Part shown: piece after piece, positions 13,804-44,800 of the stretch
Layout: each line of letters opens with the position of its first letter
Position numbering within the stretch: the stretch's first letter is position 1
IMG/VR virus record: IMGVR_UViG_3300010151_000015
Span: 1 to 56,285 of that record
Reading direction: 5' to 3' (one strand)
DNA length: 56,285 nt
DNA from: a virus
Lineage: Duplodnaviria > Caudoviricetes
Program-made: the position numbers and the translations under genes
The notes under the pieces: generated by a model
Told to the model about the DNA's origin: nothing
Seen by the model: the letters and a program-made list of their open reading frames with translations, nothing else
Database searches by the model: none

Positions 13804-15213
13804 TTAATCGTATCTCCTACAACAATACCCTGTGAACGATCCTTGAAGCAGGGTGACATTGAAGAACTGGGCTAGGATCTGCTGCCACTGCTTCGGGGTT
13901 TTATGCTCCCGATTGCCACATGCAGCCGTCCCACTCAGGGCCGCTTCGGACACAACGGCGATCAGCGCGGTTCCCCCAGGCTTCAACAGGTGATAGATAT
14001 TCACGAGTATCAGGTCGATTAAATGATCACTTGGTTGAACATTGAGGACATAGTTGCACATGACCGTGTCATACTGGATTAGTAACACCTCCGGATCTGG
14101 ATGAGTGATCATGTCGTACTTCTCAAACTCATGCTCCTCCTTGCCGCACCCATAGTCCAATATGGCCCCTTGAAGGAGTTCTTCGTTCCGGTAATACCGT
14201 AAGGGGGATGATCCCCTAGAAAGTGCCGTAGCACCCCCATATTCCCCATCGTCACGCTTCTCAGGGGGTTCTTCAACCACAAAGAGCTTCTGGATCTCGT
14301 CTTCCGCAAATCCGGTCTGGGTCAGGTCTGTAACGTCCATATCCCCCAGGTCCGTGATCTCAAGCCGCAATAATTCGTCATTCCACTCAGCCGCTTCCCC
14401 AACCTTGTTATCCGCGATCCGGTACGCCTTTACCTGGGCCGGAGTCAGTTTATCCGCCACAATGACCGGCATCTCCAGCCAAGCCAAGGATAACGCAGCC
14501 AAATACCTTGTATGGCCTACAATGATCACACCGTCACTATCCACAACAATCGGCTGCTGCCAGCCATACTCTTTCAGGGATACCGCCACCTTCTGGATGG
14601 CTGATGCGTTATCGCGGGGATTCCTGTGATATGGGTGGATCTTATCGGATGACCATGTCTGGACGTTCATTGATGGAGATGGATGATCCTTGACCACTCT
14701 GAGATCCGGCTTCACTGGCTCGTCAATGAGATGCTCGAGCGGTAGGCCGAACTTCATCAACTGGGTCTCCCAGGCTTTAATCGATCCACCCTTGGCCGGT
14801 TCAGTCAGAGTCTGGAGCCACTGGAATGACCAGTTATAGGCCTCCTCGACATCAAATCCCTCGTAATCATCCTTTACCCAGAGCCACTTGTGATGCCATA
14901 CCCCGCAACTGGCCCCGAGCTTTACCTCACCCTCGTGCATATAGGTTAAGGTCTTGCCCACCGTAGGCTCCCTGGCCGTATCAAAGTCTGGGGCCTCATC
15001 CAGTCGAACCTTGCCACTCCTCAGATCCACCATCACGCAATCGAACAGAAAGGCCTCAGTATCAGCCGCCGACAGTATCCTCTCCCAAGTCCCTGGATCG
15101 ATGTACTCCTCCCAATACTGCCGGTGAAAGTACAACTTCCCACTGATCTCCTTGCCGACATTATCTCCGGCCCTCTTGATCACAGACCCCTTCAGCGTTC
15201 TCAACTCCTTCAT
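13804..15213 (-). CDS. Three-domain protein: Dnd-associated methyltransferase accessory domain + ParB/Srx-like domain + SAM-dependent methyltransferase
   Basis: ParB-N motifs PYHRNPR, EYGWQQPIVVD..GVIIVGHTRYLAA, AYRIADNK; MTase motifs ILDYGCG and YDTVMCNYVLNV. ATG at 15213 overlaps the upstream stop (ATGA); the ORF track uses 15219. Confidence 0.8.
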   Translation of the reverse strand: MKELRTLKGSVIKRAGDNVGKEISGKLYFHRQYWEEYIDPGTWERILSAADTEAFLFDCVMVDLRSGKVRLDEAPDFDTAREPTVGKTLTYMHEGEVKLGASCGVWHHKWLWVKDDYEGFDVEEAYNWSFQWLQTLTEPAKGGSIKAWETQLMKFGLPLEHLIDEPVKPDLRVVKDHPSPSMNVQTWSSDKIHPYHRNPRDNASAIQKVAVSLKEYGWQQPIVVDSDGVIIVGHTRYLAALSLAWLEMPVIVADKLTPAQVKAYRIADNKVGEAAEWNDELLRLEITDLGDMDVTDLTQTGFAEDEIQKLFVVEEPPEKRDDGEYGGATALSRGSSPLRYYRNEELLQGAILDYGCGKEEHEFEKYDMITHPDPEVLLIQYDTVMCNYVLNVQPSDHLIDLILVNIYHLLKPGGTALIAVVSEAALSGTAACGNREHKTPKQWQQILAQFFNVTLLQGSFTGYCCRRYD

Positions 15214-15365
15214 TTCCAATCCTCTATACTGATGCGTAAATGCCTGATCTCTACAGACATATCGTGTATCTCATCTACTAGCTGCCTCACGGCCATGGCA
15301 ATAACAATGGCCGATAGCCCTATCTCGAAAACGAGAGCAAGCAGCAGCCACCAGTATGCTGTCAT
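15210..15365 (-). CDS. Small membrane protein (51 aa)
   Basis: MTAYWWLLLALVFEIGLSAIVIAMAVRQLVDE...; GGAGG RBS and ATGA coupling at both ends; below the ORF-track size limit. Confidence 0.5.
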   Translation of the reverse strand: MTAYWWLLLALVFEIGLSAIVIAMAVRQLVDEIHDMSVEIRHLRISIEDWK

Positions 15366-19049: not shown

Positions 19050-19089
19050 TCGGCATTCCGAACACACGCAAGCCAAGGAGAACGACAGA

Positions 19090-20052
19090 ATGACTAAGCT
19101 ACAAGAGATTACAGACCGTAAGATTGAAGCCCAGATTTGGGACCTCGCCAACCAGGGAGCCATTTTCTATGTCTCTCATTCTGGGGGCAAAGATTCCCAG
19201 GCAACCTACCTCTACCTATCCAGTGGCCTCCATATCCCTACAAGCCAGATCGTGGTTGTCCACGCTGACCTGGGTGAAGTCGAGTGGACTGGGGTGAAGG
19301 ACCATATCCGAAACACCATCCTCCATCCCCTCAATGTAGTAAGTGCGATTTACAAGGATGGATCTGAAAAGACCCTGCTCAATCTTGTTGAGAAGCGATT
19401 CGACACAAGGCCCGAAGCTCCCTCCTGGCCCAGCAGCGCAGCCCGATACTGCACTTCAGATCTGAAGCGCGGCCCGATTGAGAAGTTCATCCGCAATGAC
19501 CTCAAGGCCAGGGGCAAGACCCTCGCCGTCAATGTATGTGGAATCAGGGCTGAAGAGTCATCTGCCAGGGCCAAGAAGGTCCCGTTTCAGCAGAATGACC
19601 GGCTCTCCATCGCCAGCCGCACGGTTTATGACTGGTATCCCATCTTCGACTGGTCAACTGATGAGGTGTTCCAGTGCATCGCTGATTACGATGAGAAGCC
19701 TTTCTGGGCCTACGCTGAAGGGAATGACCGCCTGAGCTGCGTGTTCTGCGTGTTCGGATCTAAGGGTGATATCGCCAGGGGCCGCAAGTATCGTCCCGAG
19801 CTGTTCGCCAAGTACGTTGCCCTGGAGGAGAAGACTGGGTACTCAGTATTCGCCAAGGAATCGATCATCGCCAGGAGCAGCCAGTTCACTGTTACGGTAA
19901 CCCACAGGGAAGGCCTGGACACTGAGCAGGTCCAGTTCTTCACCGAGGCCGAGGTCAGGGCATTCACCAGGGAAGAGGTGAAATGGCAGTACACTGATCG
20001 AGTCATCTGCGAAGCCCTGGATATCGATGAGGCTGGTGACTGGACCGCATAG
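19090..20052 (+). CDS. PAPS reductase-family (PP-loop, Fe-S) protein 1
   Basis: VSHSGGKDS PP-loop, RYCTSDLKRGPI, GIRAEESSAR, YPIFDW and RLSCVFC. ATG at 19090 has an AAGGAG RBS; the track's TTG start at 19021 coincides with the -35 box. Confidence 0.9.
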   Translation: MTKLQEITDRKIEAQIWDLANQGAIFYVSHSGGKDSQATYLYLSSGLHIPTSQIVVVHADLGEVEWTGVKDHIRNTILHPLNVVSAIYKDGSEKTLLNLVEKRFDTRPEAPSWPSSAARYCTSDLKRGPIEKFIRNDLKARGKTLAVNVCGIRAEESSARAKKVPFQQNDRLSIASRTVYDWYPIFDWSTDEVFQCIADYDEKPFWAYAEGNDRLSCVFCVFGSKGDIARGRKYRPELFAKYVALEEKTGYSVFAKESIIARSSQFTVTVTHREGLDTEQVQFFTEAEVRAFTREEVKWQYTDRVICEALDIDEAGDWTA

Positions 20053-20106
20053 TCTGACTGATGAGGCCTGAATGGCCGAAACCCCCGAGACCTGGGGGTC
20101 TTAGAC
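20052..20106 (+). ncRNA. Hammerhead ribozyme 1 (type I), predicted cleavage after C20100 (GUC)
   Basis: Stem I GTCTGA/TTAGAC; core CTGATGA (20058-64); stem II GGCC-TGAAT-GGCC; GAAA (20078-81); stem III CCCCC-GAGACCT-GGGGG; then TC. Confidence 0.93.
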
Positions 20107-20136
20107 AATTAACATAAACTGATTAGGAGTACGAAA

Positions 20137-21147
20137 ATGAGGCAACTGATTACATCCGATAGACTGCAAGACCTCAAGGCCCTGGTAGCCAAAGGCCACA
20201 AGATCAACCTGTGCAACGGCCTGGGAGTCGATTCCACCGCTGTATCTGTCCTGCTGCACAGTGAGGGCATCCGGCCTGATGTCATCACCTTTGCCGATAC
20301 AGGAGGTGAGAAGCCTGAGACACTGGCACACCGGCATATTCTGAACGAATGGTACGCCTCGATTGGCTGGCCCCAGATCACTGTCTGCGCCAAGGTCACC
20401 TTGCCTTCCACCAGCTATGAAGACCTGACTGGGAACTGCCACGATAACGAGACTCTGCCTTCCCTGGCCTTCGGCAAGAAATCCTGCAGCATCAAGTGGA
20501 AGCAAATCCCCCAGGACTATTTTCTGAAGGGCTGCAAGGCTCCGCACAACCCGATCCCAGTCCATCCTCTCTGGGCCGAGTATCAGGAGACCGGCCTCAA
20601 GATCATCAAGATCATTGGATACGATGCTGGCCGTGCTGACATCAGGCGATCCAAGAAACTCAAGGGTGAAGACAATGACTTCATTTTCAACTATCCGCTG
20701 CAGAGTGTGGGCTGGGCCAGGGCTGAGTGCGTTGCAGCAATCACTGAGGCGGGACTGCCAGTGCCTGTGAAATCCGCATGTTATTACTGCCCAGCGTCGC
20801 AAAAATGGGAGCTGTTCTGGTTAGCAGGCACTCACCCCCATCTGTTCCTGAATGCCCTGCAGCTTGAGCGCGGTGCATTGACTGGTCACCACAGTCGATT
20901 CGCAGACGATGTTGACTGGATCACCTGGGAAGATCTGGTCAGCGATTACGATGAGTACCCCAGCCTGAATACCTGCGTTGGCCTGGGCAGATCCTTTGCC
21001 TGGAACCAGTGGGCCAGGATCGAAGGGATCGTGGATCGTGACGGCAAGTTCATTGGCAACCGCACCGAGCTTCTCAGGAAGGCTACCGAGCCGCGAGAGG
21101 CCAAGGAAGCCACAGGCGGCAACGCACAAGATGCGAGGACCTGCTAG
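20137..21147 (+). CDS. PAPS reductase-like / adenine-nucleotide alpha-hydrolase protein 2
   Basis: NGLGVDST PP-loop variant, FADTGGEKPET, SCSIKWK, IIGYDA, YPL and PVKSACYYCP. Confidence 0.85.
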   Translation: MRQLITSDRLQDLKALVAKGHKINLCNGLGVDSTAVSVLLHSEGIRPDVITFADTGGEKPETLAHRHILNEWYASIGWPQITVCAKVTLPSTSYEDLTGNCHDNETLPSLAFGKKSCSIKWKQIPQDYFLKGCKAPHNPIPVHPLWAEYQETGLKIIKIIGYDAGRADIRRSKKLKGEDNDFIFNYPLQSVGWARAECVAAITEAGLPVPVKSACYYCPASQKWELFWLAGTHPHLFLNALQLERGALTGHHSRFADDVDWITWEDLVSDYDEYPSLNTCVGLGRSFAWNQWARIEGIVDRDGKFIGNRTELLRKATEPREAKEATGGNAQDARTC

Positions 21148-21167
21148 GTCCCAGGGGCTTCGGCCCC

Positions 21168-21219
21168 GCTGTCGAGAGGTGATGCACCTCTCCTGATGAG
21201 GCCCCCAGGCCGAAACAGC
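21168..21219 (+). ncRNA. Hammerhead ribozyme 2 (type III), predicted cleavage after C21173 (GUC)
   Basis: Stem III GCTG/CAGC; TC; stem I GAGAGGTG-ATG-CACCTCTC; core CTGATGA (21193-99); stem II GGCC-CCCA-GGCC; GAAA (21212-15). Confidence 0.93.
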
Positions 21220-21296
21220 TAAAGAAGTATCTTTCGCAGTATAATTATGCGATGATGCGTCAATACGAACCGAAACTGACTAGGAGAACGACAATT

Positions 21297-22352
21297 ATGA
21301 TGAACCTTCCACAAATTAACCTGGGCCAAGCCACGGAGTTTCTGACTTCATGGTGGGCTGCAGGCAATACGAAGCCGGTAACGCTTTGGGGACCTCCAGG
21401 CGTTGGTAAGTCTGCCGGTATCGCTGCAGTACCAGCCCGACTCGAAGAGATCCAGGGTCAGCCCTGGGGCTTCATCGATGCCCGATTGAGCCAGATGGAC
21501 GCAGTGGATCTGCGCGGTGTGCCATCAATCGAGAACGGCATCACCACTTGGAATACGCCATCCTGGCTCCCCAACGTCGAGCGAGACGGCCCCAGGGGGA
21601 TTCTGTTTCTGGATGAGCTGTTCCTGGCATCCCCTTCCACCCTGGCCGGAGCGTATCAACTGCTCCATGATCGATGCCTGGGTGACTATGTTCTGCCCGA
21701 GGGCTGGGTTGTCGTAGCGGCCAGCAACAGGCCCGAAGACAAGGCTGGCCTGACCAGTAACTTCAATACGGCGGTCAGCAATCGATTCGCCACTCACTTC
21801 AACATCATCTGTGATGTTGTCGTCTGGACTGCCTGGGCCGCGCCTCACGGGGTCCTGGCCGAGGTCATCGCTTTCCTGGGTTTCTGTCCCGAACTGATCC
21901 ATGAATACCCCAACGGCCTGGGCAAGGAAAAAGGGGTCATCGGATTCGGTAGCCCCCGTTCCTATGAGGCTGCAAGCGATATCCTGAAGCTGGGCCTGCC
22001 GATAGATCTGGAACATGCCGCCCTCCAGGGTTGCCTGGGATTCGGTATATCTGCCCAGCTTATCGGGTTCATCAAGATCATCCGCAACCTCCCAGATGTT
22101 GCCGGTATCCTGTCAGATCCTGATAACGCGCCAATACCTTCGGCTCCTGATACCCAGTACGCCCTGGCCGCTTTGTTTGCCAGGAAAGCTACCAGGGAGA
22201 ACCTGGGGGCCGTCATCCGGTTTCTGGATCGCATCAGCTCAGAGTTTACCATGCTCACAGTGCTTACAGCGACTGCCCGTGACCCTGAGTTGAAGGAGAC
22301 CCAGGCCTACATCGATCACAAGATCGCCAACAAGGAGGGCTATGTGGGCTAA
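21297..22352 (+). CDS. MoxR-like AAA+ ATPase
   Basis: Walker A GPPGVGKS, DLRGVP, Walker B ILFLDE, VVAASN, NRF and SPRSYE. Start placed at ATG 21297 after a TAGGAG RBS. Confidence 0.9.
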   Translation: MMNLPQINLGQATEFLTSWWAAGNTKPVTLWGPPGVGKSAGIAAVPARLEEIQGQPWGFIDARLSQMDAVDLRGVPSIENGITTWNTPSWLPNVERDGPRGILFLDELFLASPSTLAGAYQLLHDRCLGDYVLPEGWVVVAASNRPEDKAGLTSNFNTAVSNRFATHFNIICDVVVWTAWAAPHGVLAEVIAFLGFCPELIHEYPNGLGKEKGVIGFGSPRSYEAASDILKLGLPIDLEHAALQGCLGFGISAQLIGFIKIIRNLPDVAGILSDPDNAPIPSAPDTQYALAALFARKATRENLGAVIRFLDRISSEFTMLTVLTATARDPELKETQAYIDHKIANKEGYVG

Positions 22353-22353
22353 C

Positions 22354-22411
22354 GTCCTACTGACGATCTGGGATGGTGACCCAGTGAAAGCCCCGAGAGG
22401 GGCTATAGGAT
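22354..22411 (+). ncRNA. Hammerhead ribozyme 3 (type I, U-U at 10.1/11.1), predicted cleavage after A22405 (CUA)
   Basis: Stem I GTCCTA/TAGGAT; core CTGACGA (22360-66); T-CTGGG-ATGGTGA-CCCAG-T; GAAA (22386-89); stem III GCCCC-GAGA-GGGGC; then TA. Confidence 0.88.
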
Positions 22412-22442
22412 AACCACTTAAACTGATACGGAGAACGACATT

Positions 22443-23315
22443 ATGAGGATTCAAGAACAGGCGTTGCTGGTTAGCGTCACCCTCCACTACTGGAGAAATC
22501 GCAAGCTCGACAAGCGATTGACTGCCAAGGTCAACAAGCAGACCAAGGCCAAGAAAGGGACCATTGGAGTCACTAAGGATCTGGTGGACTGTGCGGAGGT
22601 CAAGCAACTCAAGACCCTCCAGGGCCATATCCGAAACAACATCGTGGATCATTTGACCGTCCCCTGGGGCGATCATGGCCAACGGTTGATCACGGTAGAG
22701 CTGCTGGATCGATTTGAAGATGAGCTGGCCCAGGCCGTGCTTGACTGGGATACGCTGCTTCATGACCTGAAGACCAGCTACCCGATTGCAGTGGCAAACT
22801 CTGCTGACCTGCTCGGGACCGCTCACAATCCAGCGGACTACCCGACTACTGACCAGATCATTGCCAAGTACGGCATTGAGGTTAAATACTGCCATCTGCC
22901 AGATAGCGGTGACATCCGAGTGGATCTGCCCCAGTCCAAGATCGATAAGATTGTCAACAGTGTTGATGATCAGGTGACTGCCGGAATCAAGGAAAGCACC
23001 ACTCGAATCCACAAGCGCCTGACAGACAAGCTCGGGGCGCTGATCGAGAAGCTCAGTGGGTACACGGTAGATGCGAAGACCGGCAAGGCTACTGGGAATT
23101 TTGCTCCTACCCTGGTAACCAACCTGACGGATCTGGTAGACATTCTCCCAGCTCTGAATGTGACCGGCGATCCTGCACTGGCCCAGGCCACTGATGAGAT
23201 CGTGGCCCAGTTGGGTGACCTCAAGCCTGAAGCACTCAAGACCAATGAGTCCTACAGGAAGGATACTATCGCAAAGGCCAAGACCATCGCGTCAAGCCTG
23301 GAGGGCCTGTACTAA
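22443..23315 (+). CDS. Helical phage protein often found with AAA/vWA pairs (DUF3150-like)
   Basis: 290 aa; TVPWGDHGQRL, DYPT..QI..KY and LPALNVTGDP.L; coupled to the vWA gene via TAATG. Confidence 0.6.
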   Translation: MRIQEQALLVSVTLHYWRNRKLDKRLTAKVNKQTKAKKGTIGVTKDLVDCAEVKQLKTLQGHIRNNIVDHLTVPWGDHGQRLITVELLDRFEDELAQAVLDWDTLLHDLKTSYPIAVANSADLLGTAHNPADYPTTDQIIAKYGIEVKYCHLPDSGDIRVDLPQSKIDKIVNSVDDQVTAGIKESTTRIHKRLTDKLGALIEKLSGYTVDAKTGKATGNFAPTLVTNLTDLVDILPALNVTGDPALAQATDEIVAQLGDLKPEALKTNESYRKDTIAKAKTIASSLEGLY

Positions 23316-24784
23316 TGAGCGCCGAAGCACTTGCTAAGGTAACCCAGGCCAGGAAGCGGCTCATCCGAGTCGCTCCGTTCTTTGCCCACAAGGCACTGAG
23401 TCTCCGCCTGGAAGAGTCTACACTGACTGAGACAATGGCCACAGACGGGACCTGCGTTTTTTACAACGTGGATTTTGTCCTGGCCATCTCAATCGTGGAG
23501 CTGTTCACAGTTTTCGCCCATGAGGTATGCCATGTAATCCTGTGTCACCATACCCGCCGAGGAACCAGAGACCCCAAAGAATGGAACGTCTCCTGTGATT
23601 TTGCGGCCAACCTGATCATCGATGCCTACCAGCTTTTTCAGCTCCCCCAGGGTGCTTTGCTGGATCAGGCATACAAGGGCCTGAGTGCCGAGAAGATCCA
23701 CACGATCATCTTTGGTAACAGGCCCCAGGAAGATCCTTCAGATGACTCTCAGGAGCCACAGGAGAGCGATTCGGATGAAGAGGGTGATGATACCTCCGAA
23801 GGCGAGAACGCTCCCCAGGATGACCAGGGCGAGGATGAGGGTGATTCTGAAGAGGGTTCTGAGTCCCAGGCCGGCGATGAGGGTGACCAGGGTGATGACC
23901 AGGGTGATTCCGAGTCTGGATCTGGTGATGATGGCCAGGGTGATGATGGTGATGATGCCGGTGATTCAGCCGGATCTGGTGACCAGGGTGACGATGATTC
24001 TGGCAACGGATTAGGCGAGGCCGAAGGTGAAGGCGAGGGCGAAGCTCCTGCCGGTTCCCCAGGCGAAGGCTCTGCTCCTGGCGAGATCTGGGATGCCGTC
24101 AATGACGATGGTGAGCCGCTGACCCCTTCCGAGATCGAGACTGAAGAGCGCGAAATCGCTGCCCAGGTCTTCCAGGCCCATCAGGCCGAGAAGGCAATGG
24201 GCAAAGGTGCTGGCAACGTCCTCGGTGTTCTCGAAGACAAGCTGGAGCAGCCACTGCCCTGGAATGAGATCCTGCAGGAATATTTTTCTGACATGATCTC
24301 TTACGATTCCACATTCGCTAGGCCTAACCGTAGGTTCCTGCACTCTGGCCTGATCCTACCTGGGCCTGATCAGCAGCCCAACGGGGAGCTGGTACTGAGT
24401 ATCGATACTAGCTGCAGCCTGGGCCAGGATGAGTTGGAGACGATAGCCGGTCATATTAACGAGTTAATAGACACGATCCAGCCAAGCCAGACCACTGTGA
24501 TTTACTGTGATGCGGTTGTACAGCATGTCGATGTATTCGAGCGCGGTGAAGAGGTGGAGCTGGTACTGCACGGCGGCGGCGGCACTCGATTCGATCCAGT
24601 GTTTGAGTACTGCGAAGCCGAGGACATCCAGCCGGATGCGCTGATCTACTTCACTGACGGGTACGGATATGTGACAGTCGAAGAGCCAGAGTATCCTGTG
24701 ATCTGGGTGACCACTGCAGTAGCTCCCAGGTTCCAACGAGAAGCTGACCGATTCGGGGAGGTGATCGAAGTCGAGGCCTACTGA
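23315..24784 (+). CDS. Metallopeptidase-like (DUF2201-type) + acidic linker + vWA domain protein
   Basis: TMATDG, HEVCH zincin motif, WNVSCDFAAN; about 110-aa D/E/G/S low-complexity linker; vWA MIDAS-like IDTSCS, GGGTRF and LIYFTDGY. Confidence 0.9.
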   Translation: MSAEALAKVTQARKRLIRVAPFFAHKALSLRLEESTLTETMATDGTCVFYNVDFVLAISIVELFTVFAHEVCHVILCHHTRRGTRDPKEWNVSCDFAANLIIDAYQLFQLPQGALLDQAYKGLSAEKIHTIIFGNRPQEDPSDDSQEPQESDSDEEGDDTSEGENAPQDDQGEDEGDSEEGSESQAGDEGDQGDDQGDSESGSGDDGQGDDGDDAGDSAGSGDQGDDDSGNGLGEAEGEGEGEAPAGSPGEGSAPGEIWDAVNDDGEPLTPSEIETEEREIAAQVFQAHQAEKAMGKGAGNVLGVLEDKLEQPLPWNEILQEYFSDMISYDSTFARPNRRFLHSGLILPGPDQQPNGELVLSIDTSCSLGQDELETIAGHINELIDTIQPSQTTVIYCDAVVQHVDVFERGEEVELVLHGGGGTRFDPVFEYCEAEDIQPDALIYFTDGYGYVTVEEPEYPVIWVTTAVAPRFQREADRFGEVIEVEAY

Positions 24785-24833
24785 TGATCTGGGGCGGTTC
24801 CCCAGTGAAAACGCCCTTCGGGGCGTTATAGGC
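24776..24833 (+). ncRNA. Hammerhead ribozyme 4 (type I, U-U at 10.1/11.1), predicted cleavage after A24828 (UUA)
   Basis: Stem I GCCTA/TAGGC; core CTGATGA (24781-87, containing the vWA gene TGA stop); T-CTGGGG-CGGTT-CCCCAG-T; GAAA (24807-10); stem III ACGCCC-TTCG-GGGCGT; then TA. Confidence 0.9.
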
Positions 24834-24859
24834 AAACCAACTTAACTAGGAGTTTTATT

Positions 24860-25075
24860 ATGGCAAACCATTACATCACGCTCACCGGAGCGGCCCCAGG
24901 AGATGCTGGGGATGAGGCCAGGACATCGTCCCTGGTAATCACTGGCGGGGAACCTGGGATCAAGGTCCTGGGCGAACTGCCTCACGGCTACATCTTCACT
25001 CCGGCAACGGACGAGGACCGCTACGCGCTTTGCGAGTGGCTGCTGAACCTCGAGTACCCCGAGGAGAAGTCATGA
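24860..25075 (+). CDS. Hypothetical protein
   Basis: 71 aa, TAGGAG RBS directly after ribozyme 4. Confidence 0.7.
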   Translation: MANHYITLTGAAPGDAGDEARTSSLVITGGEPGIKVLGELPHGYIFTPATDEDRYALCEWLLNLEYPEEKS

Positions 25076-25326
25076 ACGTACAGACAGGCATCAGCGGATC
25101 TCAGCCAGGGGTTGGGTCCTTTATCGCCCACACAACGCCGGACGGCCAGGACTGGTGTATCCAGGCGGTCATCAATGATGAGGTCATCGAGAGATGGTGC
25201 AGCACTTGGAGTGCGGCCAACTGCAACGGCCTGACCAAGGTCTACGCCATCCTGAGAGAATTGGGGTTCACCCTGGAAGGATTCCAGACCGCCGAGGTTC
25301 TACCCTTGCGCGTCAATATTGATTAG
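25072..25326 (+). CDS. Hypothetical protein
   Basis: ATG at 25072 overlaps the upstream stop (ATGA) and has a GAGGAG RBS. Confidence 0.65.
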   Translation: MNVQTGISGSQPGVGSFIAHTTPDGQDWCIQAVINDEVIERWCSTWSAANCNGLTKVYAILRELGFTLEGFQTAEVLPLRVNID

Positions 25327-25634: not shown

Positions 25635-25774
25635 TCGGAAACCCTGCTGGCAGGGGTCCTTTCGGGGAGTAGGCCAGACAGTCCCAGCGGACGGTGGGCT
25701 GCATATGAAAAACATCCGTAGTTGACAAGGTGAGGGTAAATGGTTGTACCCCGCCCCACTGAGGTTAACGAGAA

Positions 25775-25805
25775 GCCTGCCCATCGTGAGATGCGCGGGT
25801 TTTTT
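25775..25805 (+). terminator. Rho-independent terminator of the + strand operon
   Basis: GCCTGC-C-CATC-GTGA-GATG-C-GCGGGT hairpin followed by a T run. Confidence 0.65.
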
Positions 25806-25868
25806 CTTGCCTGGAGAATAATCCGGAAACAAAAAGGCCTATTTCTTTTCCGCTTTTCCTGCTCCAGA

Positions 25869-33229: not shown

Positions 33230-34047
33230 TCGTGAAAGAGCCGAAGAAGTTTATTAACTACTACAACACAGAGTCATGGCAGTTGCTCAAACATGCCGCG
33301 CATATCAGGGACAGGTGGGCCTGCATAATTTGCGGACATCACATTGAGGATTCCGCAGACATCGTAATAGACGGTCACCATAGGTTTTACTACCACCATA
33401 GGCCGGAGTTCAAGGGCCTGGAATACCCTCTTGAGTCCATCGCCACTCTCTGCAGGGCCTGCCATGACAAGGTGACGGCTCTGAATGAGAACCTTTACCG
33501 CAACAATTTCGGTGAAGTGGAGCTGAACAATGATGACTGGGCGGAAGAGATGAGGGTGAAGTTATTCCCTGGGGAGACAACTAAGTGGGATTTCAACGCG
33601 ATTACAGAGCGCCAGCTAACCCTGGTAGAACCCGTAACACCCGTAACAGTGGAGGACATAACCCAGGCCAAGCCTATCGGTGGCCTCCGAAAGAATGGTG
33701 GGCCAGCAATAGTCTATGACGCGATATGGGACCAGGGAAAACATGCGCTTGTGCCGAGAAGGGATATAGACAAAGCAGTTACCGGCAGACTAAAGACTGG
33801 GCTGAAGACAGAAGATGCGTATATCACTGATACGCTCTCCGCCTTGGTTCGCAATAACCATATCGGGATGGAGTTAAATCATTCCAAAGAGAGGGTGTAC
33901 TTAATCCCCGATCTGGAAGCCCAGGCCCTGGTACAGGAGAACGACATCCCTCCGCAGAAGCGGAACGTGAAAGATATTTTTATCAGTGTGGCGGCGGTGT
34001 TCATCATCGCGGCCTGCGCTGCAGTGACGTATACAGTACTTACTTAA
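33226..34047 (+). CDS. HNH-endonuclease-domain protein with C-terminal TM anchor
   Basis: YYNTESW...RDRWACIICG...GHHRFY...TLCRACHDKV; C-terminal IFISVAAVFIIAACAAVTYTVLT. Confidence 0.75.
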   Translation: MIVKEPKKFINYYNTESWQLLKHAAHIRDRWACIICGHHIEDSADIVIDGHHRFYYHHRPEFKGLEYPLESIATLCRACHDKVTALNENLYRNNFGEVELNNDDWAEEMRVKLFPGETTKWDFNAITERQLTLVEPVTPVTVEDITQAKPIGGLRKNGGPAIVYDAIWDQGKHALVPRRDIDKAVTGRLKTGLKTEDAYITDTLSALVRNNHIGMELNHSKERVYLIPDLEAQALVQENDIPPQKRNVKDIFISVAAVFIIAACAAVTYTVLT

Positions 34048-35834: not shown

Positions 35835-38800
35835 TTAAAAGTTGTCCTTCGTAGCATCGTGAATGATCTTGGTCAGCTTGGCCTTCCGGATCTTTATCAG
35901 CGATAGCTCCTGAGTTTTCTTGGGACCGCTCTTCTTCGTACTGGAATGGATGATCTTCATCCTCCGGTTGAGCTTCCCCAGCTCTAGCCTCTGCTTGTTG
36001 TAGTAGTCCTCCAGGCCCATGATGTCATTGTTCTTCTTCATCAACCTCTCGGCCTTATCCCACTCCTGATTTTCCCTGGCCTGCCTTATAGCCCCAGCAA
36101 CCATACTGATCTCATCCCCACGCTCATAGAACAGGGAGGTGTACTTGGTATTGTTCGGGTTGGGGTCCTTGGCAAACCGCTTTATGATTGGATAATCTCT
36201 CCATGTCATCGATGGTGCAGTCGGTGCGTCAGTCAGTGGTCTGGTGATCACCGTATCAGCAAGTCCTATGGCAGAGGCCCCCAGCCATCCCAGGTAGCCC
36301 CTGGTGAGGTGTTCTATCTGTACAGGGGAGAATGTGAGCTTCTCATGCATCACCGCTCCCATGGCTTCTGAGGCCTTTATAGCGGTAGGACTTGTCCAGG
36401 GCCGCTTCCTCGATGTAGCCGGTAAATTCTGCAGATCCATACCCAAGGATTCAATCCGCCTGCCGGTATACCAGTTGGTGTTGGTCATCACTTCAGCATA
36501 AGGCTTGGCGATCTGTGGCACTGGGTTGAATGCAAACGTGTCCAGCAGCACATGGCCCAGGCGCTCCCCGAGTAGACTCAGGTTGGCCTCATCATCAGCG
36601 AACTGCTCAACAACCCGCTCTGCTATCGTTGCGAATGCTCCTACCTCGAAAGGCCTGGGCAATGCCCACAGGGTTCCGGTAGGGTCACCTGGGATCTTGA
36701 ACAGGTGATAAGCGTCACGCTCCCACTGCTCTCGTTCCTTGTAATCCTCGTCGTCTTTCATTGACAGGTACATCACCACGGATGCTGCAGCATAAGCCGT
36801 AGTGACCCCTATCCATTGCTTCTTCTGGTTCGGATCTACAGCGGCACGGTAGTTCTTGTCCAGGCCCTGGAGTCTGGCGTTCAGGAAAGGTACTGTCTGG
36901 GATAGATACCTGATGGCCCAGCTAGACCCAGTCCTGTCAAAGGCAAGGTGATCCCGTGCCTCAAAGTTGCGGTCAAGGCGGTTACCAGTTGACTGCACAT
37001 AGTTAGCCGCACGGTTGACATTCTCACCCCGTACACCCAGGTCCTGATACTTGTTGTATGGAGTGGCAACCAGCTTCCGGAGCATGTTCTTGATCTTGTT
37101 ACGGCTATCGAGAATGTTGTCTCGGCCCACACCATTGGACATTAACCGGTCAATAGCATCCTTATCTCCACCATGGACATAGCCTGCATCGCCAAAGATC
37201 CCGCCGCCGGCCAGCATCTCAAGGTAGGTCTTGCCTTCCTTGTCAGTAGCCTGCCAGCCCTGGTAGATGTTCTTCGCAGGATTGACGCTCATGTTGGCAA
37301 CAGCCATCGCCTGGATCGAGTCTCTCAGGAGGTTGGCTATCTTAAATTCTGGGCTAAGGGTCACACCAAAGGTCAGCGCCCTCTTGAATGCCCTGGTCGT
37401 CTTCATCACCCCGTTGTTCAGGCCGTTCCAGTTCAGGGCCGTCAGCGAATCCAGTACCAGCTTGCCCTCTGGTGACTCGTCAATGTTCCACCACTGCTCC
37501 TGGCCGTTGACCATAGTGAAGATGGATTTACTCCCCCTTCCCTTGCGATTTATCTTCTTGGCCAGGGGTACGCCGTTAGTGGTGACCATGTTCTGGGCAG
37601 AGTTAAGCGCAGCGTTGGCCGCATTGTTCTTCAGAGTGGCCGATATCAGGTGATGCCAGTTGGACATGACGTTAGCCAGGGGGTCCTTCAGTGCGCTGTC
37701 CCTGCCGGTCAGTTCCTTGAAGGCCTTCTGTCTGATCAGTCCAGCATCACTGCCGCCTATCATCCTGGGGCCTGCTACATTAGCCTCCTCCATCAGTACA
37801 CGGTAGAAGGGGACATAGAATCCATCGTTCCTCCACTCCATGGCCTGCTTCTTATCTATCAGTCCGGACTCAATCGCCATATCGTAGACAGAGTTCTGCA
37901 GCTCCTCGAAATCCTTGCGAACATCCTCGAACATCTGCTCGTTACCCTTGTTCAGGGTCTTGAGCGCAGCGATCTGTTGATCAGTGAAGTGCTTCTCTTT
38001 GCTGGTCCCGTCCTCGTTGGTCTGGCCCTTCAGCTTCTCAGCCCTATGACCTATCTGCCACCACAACCACTTGTTGAGCAGCTCACCCTTCAGCGGAGCA
38101 GCCAGCTCTTGGAAGCTCTTAGAGCCTTCCTTGATCCCGATAGCCCCGTCCTCCATTATGAGACCAGCGCCTATAACCTTACCCTTATGCGCGGTTCCCA
38201 TGAGGACCTGCATCGCGCCGACTGCAGAGTTGGTCATGTTGGCCATCTTCCATGTCTTGTCACTCTTCAGGACGCTATTAAAGCTGGCGTACTGATCCAC
38301 CATGCCCTGGCGGAATACCTTGGCCCCGTGACTGGCCATCTCTTTCACCCCAGATAGATCCTTGAAAGTCTCTACCATGGACTGAATGCTTTCTTTTACC
38401 TGGGTGGCTACGGTTGGTGGACCCTGGGTCCTGCCTCCACCGTGAGTGATGGCCTCGTCCTGCTCTGGGGTGTACCGCGAGTCCTCATCTTCGGAGAACT
38501 GGGTATCGCCCATCCCCAGGGAACTCATTACCTCTTCCCTGCTGTACCTCTGGTCAGGGGATAATATGTCATCCAGGCCAACGGATTCTAGCTCCCCCTT
38601 TTTTATCCCAGGCAATCTCGAAATTTTACGCAAAATTTCGCGGCCTCGTGCCGACTTCCCAGCAGCCCACTGTGGGAGCTTCATCTCAGAAATCGCTTTT
38701 TGTATGCCGCCCATCACAGGTGACACAGGTTTTTCAGTCTCAGGAGCATTTTCCTGGGAGAATAATGTCTGCCCCTCCATAGCCTTCTGGCGCATCTTGT

Positions 38801-41800
38801 CGGTGATGGGGATGGTCTGGACTTCTAGTGCAGTCTCTGGTGGCTCTCTCCAATCAATGATTGAATCAACAGAGGGAGGCCCAGTCGGAGCCTCGGCTTC
38901 TCGTGTTTGTATGCTAGTGGTCCCCAGCCTAGCCTTCTTGTCCAGCTTACGAGCAGCGTCCTTCATTAGGTTGGGGACTAGGCGATCATAGAAATTCTTC
39001 ATGCCCTTGCCGCCAACATTCAGATCCAAACCAGACAGAACCTTGATCTGCCCCCATTGCTTGTCCTGTTCGCCATTCACTATCTTCTCTGTCAGCTCCT
39101 TGCCAAAGATGCCGGCCATCTTCTTCTCCGGAACCGAAGACATATCCTGACCACCGACACGATCCAAAGCAGCCGCGTCTGGGCCTGCTCCCTTTCGAGT
39201 AACGAATACCTTGTATGTCCCGTCATCGTTTTTCTGGTAAGCAATTTTTTCTACATGCTCTTCCAGCCGGTATCTGTCAGCTTGTGTCTGGCCATCAGTC
39301 CAAGCCACCTGATCATATCCACCCTCCGCCGCCATACGCAGAGCCTTCTTCAGACCCAGAGCCACCCAGTCATTACCTTTGAACGGACCATCGGGCGGGG
39401 CGTATGTCCATGCAGCATCGTGCATCTTCTTGTGTTCTTTCGCTAACGCTATAGTCTCAGGAGTAGCGTCCTTCTTGGAATCGTACTCCTCGTTTTCGCG
39501 GATGAACCTCATCGCTTGGAACGTGGTGTCGTAACCCCAGTTATTCTCCTCCTTCAATTTGTTTCTCAAATCAAGGGCGGTCTTCTTTTTACGCTCCCTA
39601 GTCTTCTCGGTGACTGTCTCCTTATATCCGGAGTCCTTCCCCTTTTGATGCCAGTCGCTCTGGATCTCCTCGATGAATAAGATCCTCTCACCATTGCTGG
39701 TGGTGCGATCATCGACTCGCATGTGCATTATTACGTTAGGCTTTTCTCTACCGTAGTGGCCGCTCTCATAATTACGAGGAACCCCAGCGTCTATGTTTGC
39801 GCGAACCAACGCCCTCCTCTCATTCAGCGCGGACATTTCTCGGCCTGTTGGCGTTGTTACCTTCCACCAGCCTTTATCATTATCGGGAATCTCTTCTGCC
39901 GTATACCCTTCCGGCATGGTCGTGCCTCTCTCAGGCAGACTCAACAGGATTTCTCTATAGTTCTCACCGCCAGGGACAATCAGCGATCCTTTCCCGTAAT
40001 GGGCCGTGGTTAGAGCAACGCCGGTATGCTCAATATATTCTCTGGCGAGTTCATCAAGGGCGTCTTCCTCTTCCTCCCAGTATCTATCTTCTCCGTAGTC
40101 ATCCCCTAACGTCTCTTCGGTGGCCTTATCTACGGCGTAGACCTTGCCGGTTCTCGCTCGAACACGGAACTCGGTTCTCTCAGCCACTTTCTCCATTGCC
40201 CTCTCGTGACGCTCCTCCTCAGAGATTTCACCGAGCCTTGTGGTCTCGATCTGTATACCGTTGTTATCCACATAGGCCTGCAGCTCTTCGAGAGATAGCT
40301 TGCCCTTGTGTGCATCGATGAACTCCTCCAGATCCAGAGCCTCGATCTCAGCCTGCTTGACCCCAGGTAGCCCCTTCAATGTGTTGAACATCTGTCGGGC
40401 CGGACCTTTGGTCTGCTTCATACTGGACACAGCCCTGGATAGGCCGGAGAAGAAACCATCGTTCACTGGCGCGTCATCCTGGGAGAACAATGGCTGTCCA
40501 CCCATAGCGCCTTCACGCATCTTGTCTGTGATCTGGATCTTGTGGATGCCGACCATGCCCAACTCAGTAGGCACACCCATACCGTCCCACTCAACCCTGG
40601 CCTTCTTGTCTAGCTTCCGGCCCACAGTCTTCATCAGGTTAGGCACAGTCTTGTCGTAGAAGGAGATCATCCCCTCACCACCAACGTCCAGATCCAGGCC
40701 TTTTATCCTAGAGGCACTTGACTCAATGGAGTTCGGCGGGTTCTTCTGGCCCTCGTCATTAACGATCCGCTGCGCGAGTTCCTTGCCAACTACCTTGTTC
40801 AGCTCTTCAGCCGTGTAGGTATCATCGATAGCCATGGCAGAAGAAATAGCACCCTTGCCTGTGGCTGATATCTTGTAACGATCAACAGGAGCAATGTCCA
40901 GATCAAGATCATCGTTCTCCTCTATCATGAAGTCTCTTTCTTGCTCGGCTACTTCCCTGGTGGCGTAGATTTTCTTCACCTTGCCGTCAAGGGTCACCCC
41001 GAAGTGGCCCACCTTCTCGTAAGTGACGCTCGTTATGTTCTGTCGGAGGTTGTACCTGTCGGCCTGGGTGTTGCCGGTTGTCCATGCAACAGAGTCGTAC
41101 CCGCCCTCTGCCGCCATGCGTAACGCCTTCTTCATCCCAAGCTCTACCCAGGAGTTGTTCTTGAAGGGGGTTGGACTGGGCCTGTTCTCCCTGGCGAAGT
41201 GTTCGTCAGAGGACATCATCCCTTCCTCGTCCCATCGAGCATCAGCCTTGTTCGCGTCATTCTCGGCAGCCCACCAGTCACTCTGGATCTCTTCCAAGAA
41301 AAGTATCTTCTCTCTCCTGGCAGAAGTTCTATCATTGACGCGCAAATGCAGCAGCAGGTTGGGGGAGTCTGGGAAGTGACTGCCAGTATAATCCTCAGTA
41401 CCTTTCTTCACTTTATCCACCTTGTTAATGGATAATGGATAGGCCTCAAGGCGCTGAGTAATCACATCTCCCGCTGGGCGCTCTCCAACATGCAGGTTCT
41501 GATTATCATTGTCGGGGTCATATTGTTCTGTCCATGCCTGTTCCGCCTCTTCTTGAGTAGCATAGGCCTCGATAATGTTGCCATCATCAAACAGCCCCCA
41601 CCTCCTAGTTAGGCTTTCATATTGATCCACATGAGCCTCGGCCTCTTCTCTAGTAGAGAAATCAGCAGGGAACGCTCCTTCAACCTCGAAGTAATCTGTC
41701 TCGGACTCTTGTCTTGACGGCAGGGTAAACAGGATTTCCCTGTAGTTGTCTCCGCCTGGGAGGTTGAGCAAGTGGCTGCTGTATTCTGTCTCATCCTTGC

Positions 41801-44800
41801 CGAACTTGTTCTGCTTCCACTCAAAGTCAGACATCTCATCGAACTCTTCGTCGGTCAGAGAAGATTCATTAAGAGGGGGCCTTGGGCCAAGGGGGTCCAC
41901 ACCCTCCTTATCCGCCAGCTCCTGCCATCGGGCAGTCTCCCTAGCGGTCAGAGCCTTAACTTTACCCAGGGTCTTAGTCTCAACCTGCACACCATTGGCG
42001 TCAACGTACTCTTGTAGCTGCTCCTTGGTGAGCTTGCCCTCATGGGCCTCAATGAACTCTTCCAGATCCAGGGCCTTGATCTCATCTTGCTTGACCCCAG
42101 GCATCTTCTTCAGCGTCTCGAACATCTGCTTGGCTGGACCCTTGCCCTGCTTCATATTCGATACAGCGCGGGATAGGCCAGAGAAAAAGCCCTCCTTGTC
42201 TTGGGTGTCAGTGTCCTGGGAGAGTTGTGAAGGGAACTGCCTGACGTTGTCTACTTTCCAATACTTGTTGATCAATGTTGCGAGGTATTCATTGGCGTGT
42301 TCTGCCAGTGCCGCTGACTCGTTACCCCTCTGCTCCAGTAGATCCTTACCCGCAGCAGGCTTCCCATCTCCAGCCTGCCTTCTCTTGGTTGCGATCCATG
42401 TAGCAATTCGGCGCTTGTCAATGCTTGGCCCCGTCCCAGGCTCAGAGATACTACCCATCTCTATCGCAGGATATCCTGTGAGATCCCCAGTCCGGAGAAA
42501 CTCTATCATCGCTTGGGGATCGTTCTTGAAGGCCTTCTCTTCCGGCGCTCGAACAGTATCGTGATACTCGCCCAGCTCTTTCATTGACCAGCCACCCATC
42601 AACGCCGTCTGGGCCTTCTCCAATCTGTCCGGATCATTAGACTTACTGGTTGCCTCAAGGATGGTCTGCACATCAGCATTGGGCAGGAACGATAGGCTCT
42701 CTACTCGCTCGTTGAATGCTGCATTAGGATCGTTGTCCTGGGACAGGCTGATGTTAGGCTTGCCCTTGAAGTCTGGATCAAACGCAGCAGTCGCTGCTCG
42801 GACCTCTCCAGTACCGAACATGCCTACATTGCGCTCATCAAACTGGGGGTTGTCCTCGTCCGGATGGTAGTAGCCCTCATGGACGTAGAACCCTGAGTAG
42901 CCAGACTCCATTAGCGTGTCAATGACGATAGGATCTTCGATGTCGCTGAACAAAGCATTGCTCTGAACAATCCCTTCCACTATCTCCGCCGCATCTTTTG
43001 CCGGATCATCATAGGCCAGCCCCTTTAGGTGGTCTTCTAATCGCAGTAAGAGATCTTCGTTATGCTCTTCGTTGTTGGTGTCGAACACATCGTCAGTGTT
43101 GATCAGGACCTTGGTGATCGCCGGAGCGTCATCCGGCTTGGCCATCTGGGAATTAGGAGGTGGAACCCTGGAAAAGTCTTCCGCAACTGTGGTCTCGTGA
43201 GAGAAGAACAGGATGCCTGGGTGGGTATCCATGTTGCGATCTGCCCTCTGGCCTCTGAACCAGGGGTTGTCTGGGTCCATGCCCATAGACACAGCTCTCT
43301 TCATGCGAGAGACCATGTCCATAGGTAAGCCCTTGTCTACTGCTTGCTGATACTCCTCTGCTACCTCTTGGGATAGCTGGGCATCTAAGTCTTGCGGCTC
43401 GGTATCTTCATCCCTACCTGATAGCGCGTCTCGTCCGGTGAGCTTCTGTCCAGGCCTGCTTTGATACCGGCCAATTGCCTCTTGTAGGCTTTCAGTGCGT
43501 GAGGACGGGAACCGGATTTCTCCAGCCGCTTTATCCCCGCCTCTAGTTGAGCTTTTAGTGAATTGGTCATAATTCTCTATCCCTATTACCAAAGTATCGT
43601 ACTTGTACGTTGAAGTATACGCGACAGATTCTTCCTGTTCAAGCACATCTACGATGTCATCCAACGCCTCTTCAGCCTTGGTGTACTCTGCCTCGATAGC
43701 CTCCGGCGTAGACATCTCCGCCTGGAAGTCCTCGCTCCACCGAGCAGAGAACTCCGGTATGTGCTGATGCCTGAAGCCTATGAACCTATCCTTGTCCCCC
43801 CTGGCGTCAGCCCTGGGGTCTACGATCAGCGTGAAGCCTTTAATACCAGCGTCTCTAGCGATATCTACTATCTTCTCGGCGTCAACCTGATCCAGATCTT
43901 GCTTAAAGTAGACCTCGAACCCAGGCCTAGCGTTGTCGCTCTCTTCTTCCGGACCCATTATGCGAGAAACAAACGTATCCCACTGGTCATTCTCCTTGGA
44001 GATCTGGGCTACTTCTTGGATGAATGATCGTTCATCAAAGTCTGTCTTGCTGGCAGTAACCTCTAGGTCAAATGCCCTCTCATAATCACCATCGTATTCG
44101 CCAACGGAATCCGCAGCACGGAAGATCTTGACTCCCGTCATAGCCCCCAGGCTGTCAACCAACCTCCTGGCCACAGTGAACATCTTCTTGTCTCTGACCT
44201 TGTTCTTCTTCTGCACTGACAGTCCGGACATCCACCTTCCCAAGTGAGCCTTGGCCAGCTCTCCCTCGAAAGATCCTCCGGCAGCACCGACCTTGGTAGT
44301 CCAGTCGTTCTTCGGATCGCCCCATAATTCTTTCTCCATGAACCACGCCAGGGCTTGCAATTCGTGCGGCTCCATCTCAAGCTCATCAGCCGCCAGCTTG
44401 AATACGTCCTGCCCAAACCTGAACTGTCCTCCTGGGGTAAGGTCTTTCTTTATCTCTCCGGTGACGCCACGCTCCACAATAGTGGGGACACGCTTCTCTC
44501 CCGCCAACCTCTGCAGCATCCTCGCTGCCCATACATCTATTGTTGCGTCATTGAGAGCGCCTATCAGATTCTGAGCAAAGGTCTTGGCCTTCGGCGCACC
44601 CTCGCGCTTGAACTGTCTGAACAAATTTAACAGCCCATCCATGACCCCCTTCTGCTTGGCCCAGGTTCCGAACCCTTTGCCATTAGGCCTTGTAGGCTGC
44701 ATTCCATTAAAGGCCTTGTAGTCCTCTTCCTTCTGGCTCCCTCCCTCGTCAAGGTACATCTGGTAGTCGGCAAGCGCCCCCATGATCTTGGGGTCCTTGT

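Follow-up and report, generated by a model that had tools for sequence, protein, structure and literature searches.

What might an array of self-cleaving ribozymes be doing between the genes of a single phage operon? The question is raised by the IMG/VR virus record IMGVR_UViG_3300010151_000015 (Duplodnaviria; Caudoviricetes), which comprises 56,285 bases and is estimated to be 93% complete; the whole of this stretch was analysed and is referred to below as the window. On its + strand, a cassette extending from about 19091 to about 25808, with minus-strand genes on either side, carries four predicted hammerhead (HH) motifs, HH1 to HH4, in its intergenic gaps (Table 1). A first-pass annotation had suggested that the RNA segments between these motifs could become circular or unusually stable mRNAs. 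Our analysis confirms the observation itself, namely four predicted hammerhead motifs in the gaps of one operon. As for their role, the explanation that we find likely is that one operon transcript would be processed by its own ribozymes, during transcription, into five linear messages with fixed, structured ends.

All four motifs have a complete hammerhead core, consisting of C3-A9 (CUGANGA), G12-A14 (GAAA), the A15.1-U16.1 pair and H17, which is C, C, A and A in HH1 to HH4, respectively. Each motif has three helices with stems of 4-8 base pairs (bp). The pair 10.1-11.1 that closes stem II is G-C in HH1 and HH2 and a U-U mismatch in HH3 and HH4. This mismatch does not exclude HH3 and HH4 from the hammerheads, because U10.1-U11.1, although it served as a rejection criterion in the survey of Perreault et al. 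(PMC3088659), is also described there as occurring naturally and as costing less activity than other mispairs do. We wrote a strict descriptor for all three hammerhead topologies, with the core as listed in the methods of the same survey. In the 56-kb window it has four matches, all of them on the + strand and within the cassette. It matched nothing in any of 20 shuffles of ~190 kb of sequence, nothing in bacterial loci (best 80 of 476, 927 kb) and nothing in five shuffles of those loci. Both the minimum free energy (MFE) and the centroid folds are three-way junctions for HH1-HH4, with z-scores of -4.37, -3.43, -2.47 and -2.50, respectively; the number of shuffles folding equally well is 0, 0, 2 and 3 of 200. 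The descriptor and direct reading of the sequence also agree with the first-pass annotation on the predicted cut sites (after 20100, 21173, 22405 and 24828) and on the segments that lie between them, which we call S1 (20101-21173, 1073 nucleotides (nt)), S2 (21174-22405, 1232 nt) and S3 (22406-24828, 2423 nt).

Table 1. Features of the + strand cassette, in order of position in the window
Feature	Position	Strand	Basis and details
PAPS-reductase-like gene 1	19091..20052	+	PF01507 E 5e-7; phrog_424 E 1.7e-38
HH1, type I	20052..20106	+	core CUGAUGA ... GAAA, triplet GUC, predicted cut after C20100
Shared 18-nt leader motif with Shine-Dalgarno, copy 1	20117..20134	+	pattern count
PAPS-reductase-like gene 2	20137..21147	+	PHROG only: phrog_424 E 6.5e-13
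GGGGCUUCGGCCCC hairpin directly 5' of HH2	21154..21167	+	read from sequence; kept in variant L096
HH2, type III	21168..21219	+	triplet GUC, predicted cut after C21173
MoxR-like AAA+ ATPase gene	21252..22352	+	Pfam AAA_5; phrog_1297 E 1e-67
Shared 18-nt leader motif, copy 2	21274..21291	+	pattern count
HH3, type I	22354..22411	+	core CUGACGA, U10.1-U11.1 mismatch, triplet CUA, predicted cut after A22405
Shared 18-nt leader motif, copy 3	22421..22438	+	pattern count
290-aa protein (p290)	22443..23315	+	DUF3150-like by ESM Atlas neighbours only
DUF2201_N metallopeptidase-like + DUF2201 VWA-like protein	23315..24784	+	Pfam E 2.9e-41 and 2.1e-19; phrog_1314
HH4, type I	24776..24833	+	U10.1-U11.1 mismatch, triplet UUA, predicted cut after A24828
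Two small ORFs (71 aa, 98 aa) on last predicted cleavage product	24860..25326	+	ORF list
Terminator-like hairpin + U run	25784..25808	+	sequence scan

The placement of the motifs is equally regular, as each of them fills the space that separates a stop codon from the ribosome site of the following gene. HH1 begins with the last base of the upstream stop codon and the TGA stop of the DUF2201/VWA gene falls within the HH4 core; cleavage costs no open reading frame (ORF) its stop codon. The first ORF of each unit has GGAG or AGGAG 6-10 nt before its ATG, which together with the ORF list bears out the earlier proposal that consecutive cleavages would release units holding complete ORFs with ribosome sites. 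Counted from the cut to the start codon, the leader is 36, 78, 37 and 31 nt long after HH1, HH2, HH3 and HH4, respectively. More generally, GGAG/AGGAG and an ATG are found within a few tens of bases 3' of all 15 distinct hammerheads identified by the strict scan (four in the window and 11 in relatives). The leaders share a sequence as well: the window contains exactly three copies of the motif AACUGAYWMGGAGWACGA, against 0.04 expected, each of them lying after a cut site and before a start codon, and the shorter core of this motif, GGAGAACGACA, is also present upstream of the start of PAPS-reductase gene 1 (19077-19087) and at 33936-33946. The predicted 3' ends are structured. Products upstream of type I hammerheads would end in the stem III hairpin with a 1-nt overhang, and the product upstream of HH2 in the GGGGCUUCGGCCCC hairpin with a 6-nt tail. 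An Rfam type II core within the 18-nt leader (CUGAUUAG-like letters; 22 bits, E 0.61) was considered as a further ribozyme and rejected, as its G8 is replaced and its stem II has only ~2 bp.

Hammerheads recur in related viral loci. The AAA-p290-DUF2201 triad is syntenic in ten other viral loci at 23-47% identity (L004-L006, L008-L012, L014 and L015). Among the ten viral loci that were found with the AAA protein (L004-L013), seven have strict hammerheads and five have a type I hammerhead directly before the AAA start codon (L004, L005, L006, L008 and L013); those of L004 and L006 have a bulged stem II and were missed by the strict scan. There is none before the AAA gene in L009, L011 and L012; together with the five, these are the eight loci in which this spot was inspected. 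In the window, the same junction holds a type III hammerhead as opposed to the type I of the relatives. A predicted cut in front of the AAA gene has thus been retained although the ribozyme type there has changed. Coding-strand matches to the core pattern in three whole related records (3, 2 and 1) all fall within the same short cassette region. Searches from other starting points added few loci: the exact HH3/HH4-type pattern was found at one locus in viral contigs, DUF2201 protein searches gave one distant viral locus and one metagenome locus, and the p290 search gave two viral loci. A megablast of the cassette against 50,697 phage records produced no match.

The most informative relative is a near-identical one. 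Metagenome contig L096, which represents the same variant as a 15-kb contig in run X14 (four DNA runs were compared), is 97% identical to the window from 21150 onward. Its HH4 is identical to that of the window, and its HH3 departs from the window sequence only in loop III and at N7, a position free to vary; from this comparison, it follows that core and stems are conserved. To the left, window positions 19094-21150, that is from the start codon of the first PAPS-reductase gene to just past the stop of the second, are replaced by 2864 bases (L096 972-3835). One of the genes in the replacement is 48% identical to the second PAPS-reductase of the window, and the right boundary of the replacement lies just before the hairpin and HH2.

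Tertiary contacts provide a further hint. In type I hammerheads, loop II can pair with the leader, the partner in the leader being located two to three bases past stem I. In HH3, loop II UGGU can pair with ACCA at 22413-22416, and in HH4 GGUU can pair with AACC at 24835-24838. In relatives, the pairing comes in two sequence versions, one GGUU/AACC-like and the other GGAU/AUCC: UGGU/ACCA is shared by L008a, GGUU/AACC is found with five pairs in L003, UGGAU/AUCCA is found in L005/L008b and GGAU/AUCC in L013 and L006. According to Perreault et al. (PMC3088659), such pseudoknots are common stabilisers. Over eight related and therefore non-independent sequences, the mean longest Watson-Crick helix between loop II and leader is 4.125, compared with 3.23 +/- 0.29 for shuffled leaders, and 9 of 2000 shuffles reach 4.125. 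Because the eight sequences are related, we regard this statistic as supportive only.

Based on these observations, we infer co-transcription of the cassette and cleavage in vivo. The region from ~19091 to ~25808 would be transcribed as a single polycistronic RNA, with the terminator-like hairpin and U run as the probable end of the unit, and the ~55-nt hammerhead in each spacer would fold and cut itself on leaving the polymerase. Five linear messages would result: PAPS-reductase 1; PAPS-reductase 2 (1073 nt); the AAA ATPase (1232 nt); p290 with the DUF2201/VWA protein (2423 nt); and the small distal ORFs. At its 5' end, each downstream product would have a 5'-OH followed by a fixed leader (31-78 nt) with the ribosome site; at its 3' end, each upstream product would carry a stable hairpin, separated by 1-6 nt from a terminal 2',3'-cyclic phosphate. 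In this way the transcript would be processed independently of the host, with the ribozymes uncoupling the cistrons from one another and defining their ends. Neither the layout nor the processing interpretation is novel; both are already in print (PMC3088659), phages having been known since 2011 to have such a layout, and the locus adds another phage lineage and gene set.

Whether such messages would also be long-lived, as the first-pass annotation had it, is a more delicate matter. Processing of polycistronic phage transcripts into messages of differing stability has been proposed before (PMC3088659; PMC6765202), and RNase E is stimulated by a 5'-monophosphate, which 5'-OH products lack (PMC3997798). 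Protection of the cleaved messages by their structured or modified ends is therefore plausible, since the upstream products would end in a hairpin and a cyclic phosphate and the downstream ones would have no 5'-monophosphate. However, a 5'-OH is not always protective: the 5'-OH product of glmS is rapidly degraded by RNase J1 (PMC3997798). Any effect on stability would consequently depend on the host, and the suggestion of unusually stable mRNAs holds as a plausible one that is already in the literature but not as a general gain. Apart from the papers cited here, our literature search found no in vivo work on phage hammerheads, circles or stability.

A number of observations speak against processing into linear messages, at least in a strict form. 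With the Rfam gathering score, there were no matches in the window and none in 14 related loci. With an E-value threshold, only HH2 was convincing (RF00008, 40.9 bits versus 48.5, E 2e-6); HH1 gave insignificant partial matches only (20-22 bits, E 0.6-9), HH3 and HH4 no match at E<=10, and five related loci only two sub-threshold matches, both of type III. Loop II-leader pairing amounts to only 3 bp in HH1, and nothing clear is seen in HH2. The hairpin next to HH2 is not general, as no significant hairpin precedes the type III hammerheads of relatives. A scan for promoters and terminators performed at chance level (4 promoters found, 4.6 expected). In L096, the replacement consists of three tightly packed PAPS-reductase paralogues without spacers and without hammerheads between them, and in HH2 an A is inserted after A9 and a loop carries one change. 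Judging from this variant, HH1 is dispensable and processing at each junction is not indispensable.

Hammerheads are also unevenly distributed among more distant homologues. In more distant relatives the AAA-p290 gap, of 40 nt, contains none, and strict hammerheads are missing from three of the ten viral AAA loci and from three other viral loci, as well as from three cultured-phage loci with an AAA homologue (two classed as Schitoviridae). A scan of genome contigs with the AAA alignment yielded 476 confirmed loci, many of them probably cellular and CbbQ/NorQ-like; in the best 80 of these, there is again no strict hammerhead. Because the cultured-phage, other viral and bacterial AAA loci are without strict hammerheads, the putative ribozymes, as far as their distribution tells, belong to the phage lineage and not to the gene family. 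This fits the remark in PMC3088659 that the genes flanked by phage hammerheads are not constant.

What other roles might the array have? One is that cleavage lowers or tunes expression, either through RNase J decay from the 5'-OH or through conditional, slower cleavage at the U-U variants HH3 and HH4, which would set the ratio of the ATPase to its VWA partner. The degradation of the glmS product by RNase J1 (PMC3997798; PMC6765202) would be a precedent, Perreault et al. considered that slower phage variants might be regulated (PMC3088659), and the U-U mismatch of HH3 and HH4 as well as the core insertion in HH2 of L096 point in the same direction. Nonetheless, nothing resembling a ligand-binding or switch element can be seen next to the ribozymes, the active shape is the MFE structure in all four of them, and it is hard to rationalise why a phage would destroy four successive messages of its own operon. 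We consider this explanation improbable.

Another explanation is that the hammerheads have little or no role in expression and are passengers or boundary marks of DNA modules exchanged between phages. The precise exchange of 19094-21150 in the 97%-identical L096, with a boundary just before the hairpin and HH2, would be expected from such modules, and so would the patchy presence of hammerheads among relatives. Yet in the same L096 it is loops and N7 that vary and not the core and stems, and a change of hammerhead topology has left the cut site before the AAA gene in place. Moreover, the placement on the coding strand just before ribosome sites, without exception in the 15 distinct hammerheads, points to a role at the RNA level. 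Hence, this possibility seems quite remote to us.

The first-pass annotation raised a third outcome, namely circular mRNAs. For this, a host RtcB-type ligase, or else the hammerhead reaction running in reverse, would close at least one segment head to tail into a ring that can be translated. The chemistry is suitable, since a 5'-OH and a 2',3'-cyclic phosphate are indeed the substrate pair of RtcB, as the annotation had said (PMC8782182), and tandem ribozymes do make circles in retrozymes (PMC5680766, PMC4918200). In addition, HH3 and HH4 have a common stem I (CCUA/UAGG), and AACC stands in matching register in both of their leaders, so that the ends of S3 could rebuild a hammerhead. In line with this, the HH4 body cofolds with the HH3 leader into a hammerhead shape (ddG, the free-energy difference, of -3.6 kcal/mol). 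However, this docking is weaker than the cognate one (-7.4 kcal/mol), and a joined S3 would be an active hammerhead that cuts itself again. The stem I of HH3 and HH4 is also present in hammerheads of other phages (L003, L008a), which is why their compatibility looks like shared ancestry and not design.

The remaining segments are even less suited to ring closure. S1 extends from a type I to a type III hammerhead, and in S2 this order is reversed; with different topologies on its two sides, neither segment has ends that can form a ribozyme again. Inspection of the remaining ribozyme-flanked segments in relatives shows unlike ribozymes at their ends too (in L008, type I stem I CCUA versus CACA). 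When the first 40 nt of each segment were paired with its last 60 nt, the ends paired no better than in shuffled controls: 278, 150 and 158 of 300 shuffles were at least as good for S1, S2 and S3, respectively. Furthermore, these are coding RNAs of 1.1-2.4 kb and not small rod-like retrozyme RNAs. The earlier statement that no RNA ligase is visible in the window stands: RtcB (PF01139) and Rnl2-type (PF09414) ligases were not found in the 93%-complete record, and neither was an Rnl1-type ligase (PF09511), although the control for this last search matched nothing anywhere. Finally, circular or spliced products were considered possible by Perreault et al., who looked for them and reported detecting none (data not shown; PMC3088659). 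With every indirect test against it, formation of circular mRNAs appears very unlikely. Least probable of all is a special case, conceivable because HH3 and HH4 are interchangeable in stem I and in loop II-leader register, in which the HH4 body would dock the 5' end of its own S3 and re-ligate it into a 2.4-kb circular bicistronic mRNA, or the HH3 body would join the HH4 leader and splice S3 out; if true, this would be an HH3/HH4-driven RNA rearrangement in a DNA phage operon without a protein ligase.

Processing into linear messages has a close parallel in a protein-based system. In the early polycistronic mRNA of phage T7, the host enzyme RNase III cuts between cistrons and leaves 5'-phosphate and 3'-OH ends. 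There too, the cuts separate individual messages and the 3' ends are capped by hairpins, and by this analogy the array most likely works like the T7 processing sites. The difference is that here the RNA would cut itself, with 5'-OH and 2',3'-cyclic phosphate as the predicted ends. RiboJ, an engineered hammerhead insulator, is used singly, behind a promoter and before a ribosome site, to give a uniform 5' leader. The motifs described here are likewise situated just before ribosome sites and would define the leader, but they form a natural array inside an operon.

Among natural ribozymes, the closest relatives of the array are the clustered phage hammerheads of Perreault et al. (PMC3088659). These are several hammerheads of mixed topology in phage or prophage genomes that flank single genes or short blocks, and three tandem arrangements cleaved in vitro. 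The array resembles them in its location on the coding strand between phage genes of the same orientation, in the suggested role in gene-length mRNAs, in U10.1-U11.1 and in the candidate pseudoknots of HH3 and HH4. It differs from them in its source, an uncultured marine phage, and in its genes, which encode two PAPS reductases, a MoxR AAA ATPase, a DUF3150-like protein and a DUF2201/VWA protein. With retrozymes and viroid-like circular RNAs (PMC5680766, PMC4918200, PMC7761336, PMC13725137) it shares segments bracketed by two ribozymes and ligatable ends. Those RNAs, however, are described as small (spacings of ~190-1000 nt), mostly non-coding, rod-like and flanked by repeats of one ribozyme, whereas here we have 1.1-2.4 kb mRNAs with non-complementary ends and, in two of the three segments, unlike ribozymes at the ends. 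Like glmS (PMC3997798, PMC6765202), the hammerheads would cleave within an mRNA leader and leave a 5'-OH on the coding part; glmS, in contrast, depends on a metabolite and destabilises its mRNA via RNase J1, and no ligand element is seen here.

The gene assignments of the cassette differ in their support. The first-pass labels of AAA ATPase and VWA-like protein agree with Pfam. PAPS-reductase-like gene 2 has its label from PHROG only, with no Pfam match. The DUF3150-like label of p290 is a fair lead: in its nearest ESM Atlas clusters (0.97-0.98), DUF3150 is found in 12-41% of members, but p290 itself matches no Pfam family, DUF3150 included, and no PHROG. The start of the DUF2201/VWA gene overlaps the p290 stop by one base. 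The 71-aa and 98-aa ORFs match no Pfam or PHROG family. For PAPS-reductase gene 1, the ORF list starts at TTG 19021, and there is an alternative ATG at 19091 behind AAGGAGAACGACAGA. The true start is probably 19091, since this ATG has the AAGGAGAACGACA leader of the other cassette genes and the homology to L096 ends at 19094.

Elsewhere in the record, there are genes for large and small terminase subunits, a portal/adaptor, a major head protein, a primase-helicase and Erf, as well as a ParB-like/methyltransferase gene. All 20 sequencing runs listed with the phage DNA are marine metagenome DNA. Within the DUF2201 gene, a GAT/GGT-rich codon repeat (~23922-23957) draws hundreds of unrelated metagenome contigs, so that the depth figure there (38,581, run X12) is meaningless. 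The Rfam Proteo-phage-1 RNA (RF03044) has a sub-threshold match at 25641-25723 (+; 34.6 bits versus 42, E 0.002-0.015), shortly 3' of the last + strand ORF and upstream of the terminator-like hairpin at 25784-25808. This may be an RNA in the 3' untranslated region of the cassette transcript. A single ORF of 4370 aa occupies 35835-48947 on the minus strand; PHROG matches cover only its C-terminal part (phrog_18222, of unknown function, E 7e-111) and an endolysin-like stretch. In isolates, homologues of the AAA ATPase are mostly from N4-like (Schitoviridae) phages, which carry giant virion proteins. The ORF at 13804-15219 (-), a few kb from the PAPS-reductase genes, has PHROG matches to a ParB-like nuclease/partition domain and to DNA methyltransferase. 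PAPS-reductase-like and ParB-like genes were reportedly named as typical neighbours of bacterial hammerhead and twister ribozymes by Weinberg and colleagues in 2015, and the pair is reportedly characteristic of phage regions rich in ribozymes. Our literature search for hammerhead or twister ribozymes together with 'phosphoadenosine phosphosulfate reductase' returned no paper containing that term.

The role of hammerheads in phages and bacteria is still treated as an open question in reviews (PMC6155905; PMC6765202). For addressing it, this locus may be viewed as a compact natural test case, with four ribozymes, two topologies and two U-U variants in one 6.5-kb operon. To these it adds a near-identical variant without HH1 and with an altered HH2, and relatives that swap the ribozyme type before the ATPase gene. 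Circles or ribozyme-mediated rearrangement, if found here, would be new for DNA phages. The general picture is unchanged by our analysis, which supports the existing view that it is cleavage at the junction that matters and not the particular motif.

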